Source: Shigella phage sb1. From it: a stretch of 64,000 bases of DNA. The translations under genes and the position numbers were made by a program. The DNA is taken from the sequence record PQ666539. One strand, 5' to 3'. This document shows, in pieces, positions 25,486 to 26,580 of the stretch (its first letter is position 1; each line of letters begins with the position of its first letter). The notes under the pieces were generated by a model. That model saw only the letters and a list, made by a program, of their open reading frames with translations. It did no database searches and was not told where the DNA came from.

Positions 25486-26580
25486 ATGGCAATTGTTAAA
25501 GAAATAACTGCTGATTTAATTAAAAAGTCCGGTGAGAAAATTTCAGCCGGACAGAGTACTAAATCAGAAGTAGCAACTAAAACATACACCGCCCAGTTTC
25601 CAACTGGGCGTGCTAGTGGTAATGACACTACAGGGGACTTCCAGGTAACAGATCTATATAAGAATGGATTATTATTTACTGCATAAAATATGTCATCTAG
25701 GGATTCTGGAAGTCTTAGATCGATGAGATCTAACTACTCTTCTTCATCTTCGAGTATTTTAAGTACAGCTAGAAACACTATTAGTAGTACAGTATCAAAA
25801 CTATCAAATGGATTAATATCAAACAATAATTCAGGAACAATAAGTAAAGCTCCTGTCGCAAACATTCTTTTACCGAGATCTAAATCTGACGTTGATACAT
25901 CATCACATAGATTTAATGATGTTCAAGAAAGTATTATCAGCAGAGGTGGAGGTACTGCTACTGGTGTGTTAAGTAATATTGCTTCAACTGCAGTATTTGG
26001 GGCACTGGAAAGTATAACACAAGGTATAATTGCTGATAATAATGAACAGATTTATACGACAGCCAGAAGTATGTATGGTGGTGCTGAGAATAGAACTAAA
26101 GTGTTTACATGGGATTTGACTCCACGTTCAACAGAAGATTTGATGGCTATTATTAATATCTATCAATATTTTAACTATTTTTCTTACGGTGAAACGGGCA
26201 AATCTCAATATGCTGCTGAAATAAAGGGGTATTTAGATGATTGGTATCGTTCTACGTTAATTGAACCTTTATCTCCGGAAGACGCAGATAAAAATAAAAC
26301 ACTATTTGAGAAAATGACATCGAGTTTAACTAACGTTCTAGTAGTTTCAAACCCGACAATTTGGATGGTGAAAAACTTTGGTGCAACTTCTAAATTTGAT
26401 GGAAAAACGGAAATATTTGGCACAGGCCAAATACAAAGCATCAGATTTGATAAAACACCTAATGGTAACTTTAATGGATTAGCTATTGCTCCAAACCTCC
26501 CTAGTACATTTACACTTGAGATTACTATGAGAGAAATTATCACGTTAAACCGTGCTTCTTTATATGCGGGGACTTTTTAA
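25486..26580 (+). CDS. 48: Baseplate tail-tube junction protein gp48, interrupted by in-frame TAA at 25684-25686
   Basis: Two same-frame pieces (66 and 296 aa); span 364 codons, as T4 gp48. Confidence 0.85.

Follow-up and report, generated by a model that had tools for sequence, protein, structure and literature searches.

Nonsense mutants of baseplate genes, together with suppressors derived from phage tRNAs, are known from the genetics of bacteriophage T4, and the T4 nonsense mutants used in the laboratory have one defined stop, or a few of the same type, and depend on a suppressor host. An internal stop is never expected in a functional gene. Substitutions of the G:C>T:A class are made by oxidised guanine (8-oxoG) during sample preparation (PMC3616734), and the C>A/G>T artefacts of Costello et al. 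2013 had acoustic shearing as their source (PMC3616734); the published 8-oxoG artefacts occur at low allele fraction (PMC3616734). Here we describe an in-frame stop in the gene 48 homologue of a Shigella phage (record PQ666539), found in a 64-kb stretch of its sequence that we call the window. This stop is almost certainly not a real feature of the phage but one random strike of a sequence-wide layer of G:C>T:A errors.

The gene 48 frame and codon 67 in relatives

Spanning gene 14 through gene 37, the window comes from the genome of a T4-like phage (Tequatrovirus). Its gene 48 homologue (baseplate tail-tube junction protein, or tail tube cap) occupies positions 25486..26580 of the + strand, with 364 codons followed by a natural TAA, and sits between genes 29 and 54 in a T4-like order that is colinear with 4E10, teqskov, pSs-1 and others. 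About 500 phage records matched the 1.4 kb around the stop, the best of them at 98.6% identity and with the annotations baseplate hub (gene 29), baseplate tail tube cap (gene 48) and gene 54; the alignment to the 4E10 gp48 coding sequence is likewise 98.6% identical, colinear and free of gaps. The premature TAA is codon 67, at 25684..25686 (+), within the sequence CTA TAT AAG AAT GGA TTA TTA TTT ACT GCA TAA AAT ATG TCA TCT AGG. The initial annotation had called an in-frame TAA in gene 48, and indeed the triplet shares its frame with both the ATG at 25486 and the natural stop TAA at 26578-26580. In the ORF listing, the gene therefore appears as two pieces split by this TAA, an N-terminal fragment of 66 codons plus the TAA (25486..25686, +) and a C-terminal fragment of 296 codons (25690..26580, +) that begins at the normal internal Met69, the ATG of which (25690) lies 4 nt past the TAA. 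No GGAG-like Shine-Dalgarno motif was found within 15 nt upstream of that ATG. As deposited, gene 48 thus departs from the uninterrupted frame of a T4-type gp48 at codon 67, and we judge the interruption to be an error and no property of the gene.

When codon 67 is read as Tyr, the product aligns with T4 gp48 (PDB 5IV5 chain U) from residues 1-364 to 1-364 with E = 5e-228 (phmmer, PDB), and residue 67 of the T4 protein is a Tyr within LLFTAYNMSS. The alignment to T4 gp48 (364 aa) that had been proposed as a check on the initial annotation therefore covers the full length, 1-364, with Tyr at position 67. Codons were compared with the annotated 4E10 genes first and then with teqskov, Ec_YwIITB1, pSs-1, sb2 and sb4, that is, with six genomes. 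A Tyr occupies codon 67 of gene 48 in T4 gp48 and in 12 of 12 relatives, encoded by TAC wherever the relatives were read as DNA: in all six aligned Tequatrovirus genomes and in all five IMG/VR contigs that hold the flanking 20-mer. The earlier suggestion that a Tyr codon had become TAA is thereby confirmed, the change being TAC>TAA through a single C>A at 25686. Over 281 aligned bases, 4E10 and teqskov show three differences from the window, one of which is TAC versus TAA. Tyr67 is also kept in the invariant block GDFQVTDLYKNGLLFTAYNMS of a distant gp48 homologue, whose identity is 64% across the 105 aligned N-terminal residues and 79% in the best tblastn segment.

The 20-mer that bears the TAA gave seven matches in metagenome and genome collections, none of them in a gene 48 homologue, and these matches extend over just 20-29 nt, five being exact over 22 nt. 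Exact look-ups of the 296-aa gene 48 fragment, gp54 and gp24 as proteins matched no record. Since the TAA-bearing 20-mer occurs only in unrelated contigs and the relatives have TAC, the C>A change at 25686 is unique to the window. Five unrelated contigs, which come from metagenomes and a MAG, contain the 22-mer TTTACTGCATAAAATATGTCAT without mismatch but have no further similarity to gene 48; recurrence of the 22-mer may be due to chance in very large AT-rich collections, or to a shared short element. A programmed split gene, or a termination-reinitiation arrangement, was considered and rejected because the stop-start junction is not conserved: it was present in none of the 6 genomes, the 5 IMG/VR contigs or the 1 distant homologue.

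The stop is not the only change that sets this copy of gene 48 apart. Seven codon changes are private to it; five of these are of the G:C>T:A class, none of them synonymous (Y67*, L150I, M182I, A268D and P313T). Besides the stop, these are the private C>A of L150I (CTT>ATT) at 25933, the private G>T of M182I (ATG>ATT) at 26031, the private C>A of A268D (GCT>GAT) at 26288 and the private C>A of P313T (CCA>ACA) at 26422, all on the + strand. A private T>G at codon 314 (C314G) adjoins P313T. Differences that the gene shares with some relative are many and mostly synonymous.

Premature stops and private substitutions across the window

By codon-wise comparison, the window contains 32 premature stops in 22 of its 71 placed genes (25 TAA, four TGA and three TAG), and no indels accompany them. 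The sense codons lost are GAA, GAG, GGA, TCA, TAC and TTA (Glu, Gly, Ser, Tyr and Leu). In 30 of the 32 cases the stop came from G>T or C>A at a codon for which the relatives are unanimous, and one further stop probably has this origin too. Essential genes are among those broken, namely 17, 18, 22, 23, 27, 29, 32 and 34-36.

With the codon of the relatives given in each case as the one replaced, the stops on the + strand begin in the terminase genes, with TAA for GAA at codon 153 of gene 16 (1858..1860), TGA for GGA at codon 366 of gene 17 (2975..2977) and TAA for GAA at codon 528 of the same gene (3461..3463). The tail sheath gene 18 has TAA for GAA at codon 128 (4125..4127), and the same stop is found in sb2. 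In the scaffold gene 22, TAA replaces TCA at codon 25 (10042..10044) and GAA at codon 115 (10312..10314), while codon 274 of the major capsid gene 23 is TAA for TTA (11617..11619), the sole stop made by T>A. A small ORF after uvsW has TAA for GAA at codon 11 (19075..19077). The baseplate genes other than 48 are struck at codon 102 of gene 51 (TAA for GAA, 21609..21611), at codons 194 (TGA for GGA, 22634..22636) and 341 (TAA for GAA, 23075..23077) of gene 27, and at codon 65 of gene 29 (TGA for GGA, 23897..23899). Among the tail-fibre genes, gene 34 carries four stops, all TAA, at codons 371 (for TCA, 56717..56719), 394 (for GAA, 56786..56788), 681 (for GAA, 57647..57649) and 1184 (59156..59158, where relatives have GAA, AAA or GAG); gene 35 has TAA for GAA at codon 209 (60109..60111) and gene 36 TAA for TCA at codon 190 (61230..61232).

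On the - strand, uvsY has TAA for GAA at codon 8 (20141..20143), and a small ORF adjoining gene 54 has TAA for TCA at codon 93 of 96 (27586..27588). An alt-like ADP-ribosyltransferase gene is cut by TAG for GAG at codon 178 (29449..29451), a hypothetical ORF (the 4E10 g212c homologue) by TAA for GAA at codon 23 (39687..39689), and a spanin-annotated ORF by TAA for GAA at codon 29 (43017..43019), a stop that recurs in sb4. In alc, TAG replaces GAG twice, at codons 135 (43196..43198) and 73 (43382..43384). The gene rnlA is hit three times, by TAA for TAC at its last codon, 374 (43665..43667), by TAA for GAA at codon 183 (44238..44240) and by TGA for GGA at codon 132 (44391..44393). Codons 124 and 125 of nrdA form an adjacent TAA TAA, both for GAA (48397..48402), of which the TAA at codon 125 is also present in sb4, and codon 9 of gene 32 is TAA for GAA (53210..53212).

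Other signals are broken as well. Gene 15 has lost its start through a G>T change of ATG to ATT (575..577, +), gene 34 starts with CTG (55607-55609) and the natural stop of gene 51 has changed from TAA to CAA (22053-22055); all relatives have ATG at the two starts and TAA at the gene 51 terminus. The natural terminators of the 71 genes comprise 49 TAA, 18 TGA and three TAG, at positions as in the relatives. Apparent stops that a column-wise comparison gave in teqskov were set aside as probable local alignment shifts.

Some further features of the region were noted along the way. The alt-like ADP-ribosyltransferase genes form a tandem pair at 27925-29982 and 29986-32043 (-), about 68% identical over the first 680 nt, and of the two it is the one closer to gene 54 that has the premature TAG. 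A 218-codon ORF (5724-6380, +), located between genes 18 and 19, is annotated as 'hypothetical protein' in pSs-1, sb2 and YwIITB1, with no annotated counterpart in 4E10; a mobile or optional gene is one possibility. Of the conserved genes in the window, hoc (15349-16767, -) has diverged most, at 88.5% identity to 4E10; it has internal repeats, seen as secondary matches in BLAST that are shifted by about 290 nt, which are consistent with repeated Ig-like domains. The small ORF 24.3 (15039-15241, -) has a 1-nt deletion relative to 4E10 near 15065, the sole single-base indel in the placed genes. In Ec_YwIITB1 (PQ356294), the closest relative, the annotation splits the major capsid, hoc, nrdB and frd genes; the column-wise comparison found no substitution-type stops in that genome, and the splits probably result from indels or inserted elements.

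We defined a private substitution as a position at which all references agree and the window differs. G:C>T:A changes account for 268 of the 776 window-private substitutions (35%), versus 5-8% in the clean relatives (4E10 7%, teqskov 7%, YwIITB1 8% and pSs-1 5%), and the excess was confirmed with a seven-sequence comparison. Within coding sequence they divide into 187 missense, 29 nonsense and 20 synonymous changes (79/12.3/8.5%). When G>T and C>A were applied to every G:C site of the compared genes, the random expectation for these three classes was 79.5/11.7/8.8%, and the private G:C>T:A changes fall on codon positions 1/2/3 in proportions of 41/36/24%, compared with 45/33/22% expected. Private A:T>G:C changes are 87% synonymous versus 41% expected, and this bias is the normal footprint of purifying selection. 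The G:C>T:A rate per G:C site is 1.18% in coding and 1.02% in non-coding DNA, so that roughly 1.2% of all G:C positions are affected. The changes are spread evenly along the window, at 10-25 per 4 kb and on both strands, with mild clustering at short range (25 gaps of <=10 nt versus 12.8 expected), and the window's G+C content is 0.2-0.4% below that of each aligned relative. Neither a strong trinucleotide context nor a strand or transcription asymmetry beyond base composition was found for them in the window. This private layer of about 270 changes is without any sign of selection.

At the observed G:C>T:A rate, 27.1 stops are predicted in the window, compared with the 32 observed (one by T>A). 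Gene 48 itself has 45 G:C sites at which such a change can produce a nonsense codon, which gives 0.52 stops expected and P(at least 1) = 0.41 at the window error rate; with 0.52 stops expected under this load, its TAA is a chance outcome for this sequence. Thus, while the initial annotation read the bases correctly, its implication of a noteworthy ochre mutation specific to gene 48 does not stand, given 31 other premature stops in 21 other genes.

Sister records and the origin of the stop

The closest records to the window overall are about 96-97% identical and include the Shigella phages sb2, sb3 and sb4 (PQ666540-42). The sb phages are lake-water isolates from Kolkata that were described in one study (PMC11993411), in which DNA was extracted with CTAB and libraries were made from 50 ng of input by enzymatic fragmentation and PCR amplification (PMC11993411), sequenced on a NovaSeq 6000 and assembled with SKESA (PMC11993411). 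For ADG1 (PQ666539), 285 predicted proteins or CDSs were reported, versus 254 for sb2 and 255 for sb3 (PMC11993411), and a G+C content of 35.16%, the lowest of the four, with 35.49% for AKR2 (sb2) (PMC11993411).

Two of the sister records carry stops of the same kind. In the region homologous to the 64-kb window, sb2 (PQ666540) has four premature stops, all G:C>T:A, and sb4 (PQ666542) has 46, including one at codon 247 of gene 48; in both, the sites are mostly different from those of the window. The G:C>T:A share is raised to 14% in sb2 and to 26% in sb4, and sb4 also has an A:T>T:A excess. Gene fragments are entered as separate CDSs in the annotations of sb2 and sb4. Three stops recur at identical sites, at gene 18 codon 128 (sb2) and at spanin codon 29 and nrdA codon 125 (sb4), versus about 0.4 coincidences expected, by a rough estimate, under independent errors. 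The G:C>T:A changes common to the window and sb2 or sb4 are those at 4125; 43015, 43019 and 43042; 48330 and 48399; and 60916 and 60921. Partly, these shared sites are clustered within AT-rich stretches: 43015, 43019 and 43042 form a three-site cluster common to the window and sb4 that lies in such a stretch and contains the spanin codon 29 stop. The errors thus depart from pure independence, and their source is only partly understood; recurrence and clustering suggest hot-spots of error, or reads that multiplexed samples had in common, and not biology.

We consider it very probable that the gene 48 TAA is a wrong base in the deposited or assembled sequence, that the true codon is TAC (Tyr67), and that the base belongs to the unselected G:C>T:A layer. 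Some 270 random G:C>T:A substitutions would have accumulated across the window without ever being exposed to selection, with a spectrum that would be that of 8-oxoG or of a comparable library or base-calling fault. The physical cause, which may be damage, base-calling or assembly, is one that we infer. Because published 8-oxoG artefacts are of low allele fraction, they should stay out of a consensus at normal phage coverage, and their entry needs very low coverage, a bottleneck in the template or a fault of assembly; the errors would most probably have entered through low effective coverage or few template molecules in the library. An unselected set of about 270 changes that disables capsid, sheath, terminase, gp32 and tail-fibre genes does not describe a propagating phage, and the gene 48 TAA, being one random change in a set that interrupts 22 genes, almost certainly arose as an error of sequencing or through damage to the DNA. 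The living phage would make a normal baseplate tail-tube junction protein of 364 residues from gene 48, which is very probably an intact baseplate gene of the ordinary T4 type. Against an error in the consensus can be set the use of enzymatic fragmentation in the source study and not acoustic shearing, the recurrent sites and the mild clustering. The same G:C>T:A changes might instead be real in the DNA that was sequenced, derived from an oxidised or mutator-derived and largely non-viable sub-population or from a host lacking 8-oxoG repair (mutM/mutY-type), which we regard as unlikely. 8-oxoG does give G:C>T:A in vivo as well as in vitro (PMC3616734), and the few sites and the one three-site cluster common to sb4 could reflect shared molecules; however, a genome with 32 nonsense codons, in capsid, sheath, terminase and gp32 among others, could not be propagated and so could not dominate a lysate, the lack of purifying selection means that no round of growth took place with the changes fixed as one haplotype, and the sister records carry different sets of stops. 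Were the changes real, the stop would be physically present, yet not in a functioning phage lineage. It is highly improbable that the G:C>T:A changes, the gene 48 ochre included, are present in most molecules of the stock, with so extreme a load of oxidative or mutator-type mutations sustained by complementation or by multi-codon suppression; in that event, stops identical between sister isolates would be real inherited alleles.

A genuine ochre mutation in a viable phage, tolerated through a suppressor tRNA of host or phage or through re-initiation at Met69 to give a C-terminal part of 296 residues that can still assemble, is very unlikely, even though the change is a clean single-base alteration of a Tyr codon and an in-frame ATG (Met69) lies nearby at 25690. 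A nonsense mutant kept alive by suppression should show a single kind of stop, once or a few times, and a genome that is intact elsewhere; the window has 32 stops of three types, 31 of them besides that of gene 48, spread over 21 other genes, many of which are essential, and the gene 48 stop occurs in no relative. Since no single suppressor reads TAA, TAG and TGA, a suppressed ochre mutant is excluded as an account of the whole pattern. No tRNA genes were found within the 64-kb window, the phage tRNA cluster lying outside it; for the sister phages ten tRNAs are reported, all with ordinary anticodons. Re-initiation at Met69 is formally possible but need not be invoked; the ATG lacks an upstream Shine-Dalgarno-like motif, and the 66 residues that would be lost contain an invariant block. 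Stop-codon reassignment or programmed read-through, in which the stops would be decoded as amino acids, could account for many in-frame stops in well conserved genes without frameshifts, and we give it a practically negligible probability. The in-frame stops are of all three kinds, TAA alone stands in place of Glu, Ser, Tyr and Leu, and TAA, TGA and TAG still terminate genes where they do so in the relatives. Moreover, every site is a sense codon in the clean relatives, the stops make up just the nonsense share expected from random G:C>T:A change, and non-coding DNA is struck at about the same G:C>T:A rate. With three stop types in frame, TAA in place of several residues, terminators retained and non-coding DNA affected at about the same rate, recoding is excluded.

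An error in the consensus, the reading that we prefer, carries a warning about data quality, as hundreds of unselected substitutions are present in the window and in no fewer than two of its public sister records (sb2, PQ666540, and sb4, PQ666542). Such substitutions inflate gene counts and give rise to pseudogenes and 'novel' protein variants that are false; comparative work and assessments of therapeutic safety would be misled by them. Private changes, examined for their spectrum and for their missense, nonsense and synonymous shares relative to random expectation, offer a quick test that separates an artefact of this kind from real nonsense mutation or recoding.

Comparison with known systems

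Phages in which TAG or TGA is recoded as a sense codon resemble the window in having numerous in-frame stops in conserved genes. However, in recoded phages the reassignment concerns a single codon, which is avoided at gene ends, and a suppressor tRNA is usually present; none of this is true of the window. In classical T4 amber and ochre mutants of morphogenetic genes, too, one base change turns a sense codon into a stop, but unlike the laboratory T4 nonsense mutants the window has 32 stops of three types, and it is not T4 (best database identity about 97%).

The artefacts of 8-oxoG described by Costello et al. 2013 (PMC3616734) share with the window a dominance of G:C>T:A changes that are unselected and present in all sequence classes. 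The diagnostic feature of such artefacts is a bias in read orientation. In contrast to the published artefacts (PMC3616734), the changes of the window are in the consensus, and the likely source study fragmented its DNA enzymatically; their presence in the consensus argues against a simple low-fraction artefact. As for T4 gp48 (PDB 5IV5 chain U), the window's gene 48 is full-length and colinear with it and lies, as in T4, between genes 29 and 54, while it differs from the T4 gene in having TAA for Tyr67, a T>G change and four missense changes from the private G:C>T:A set.
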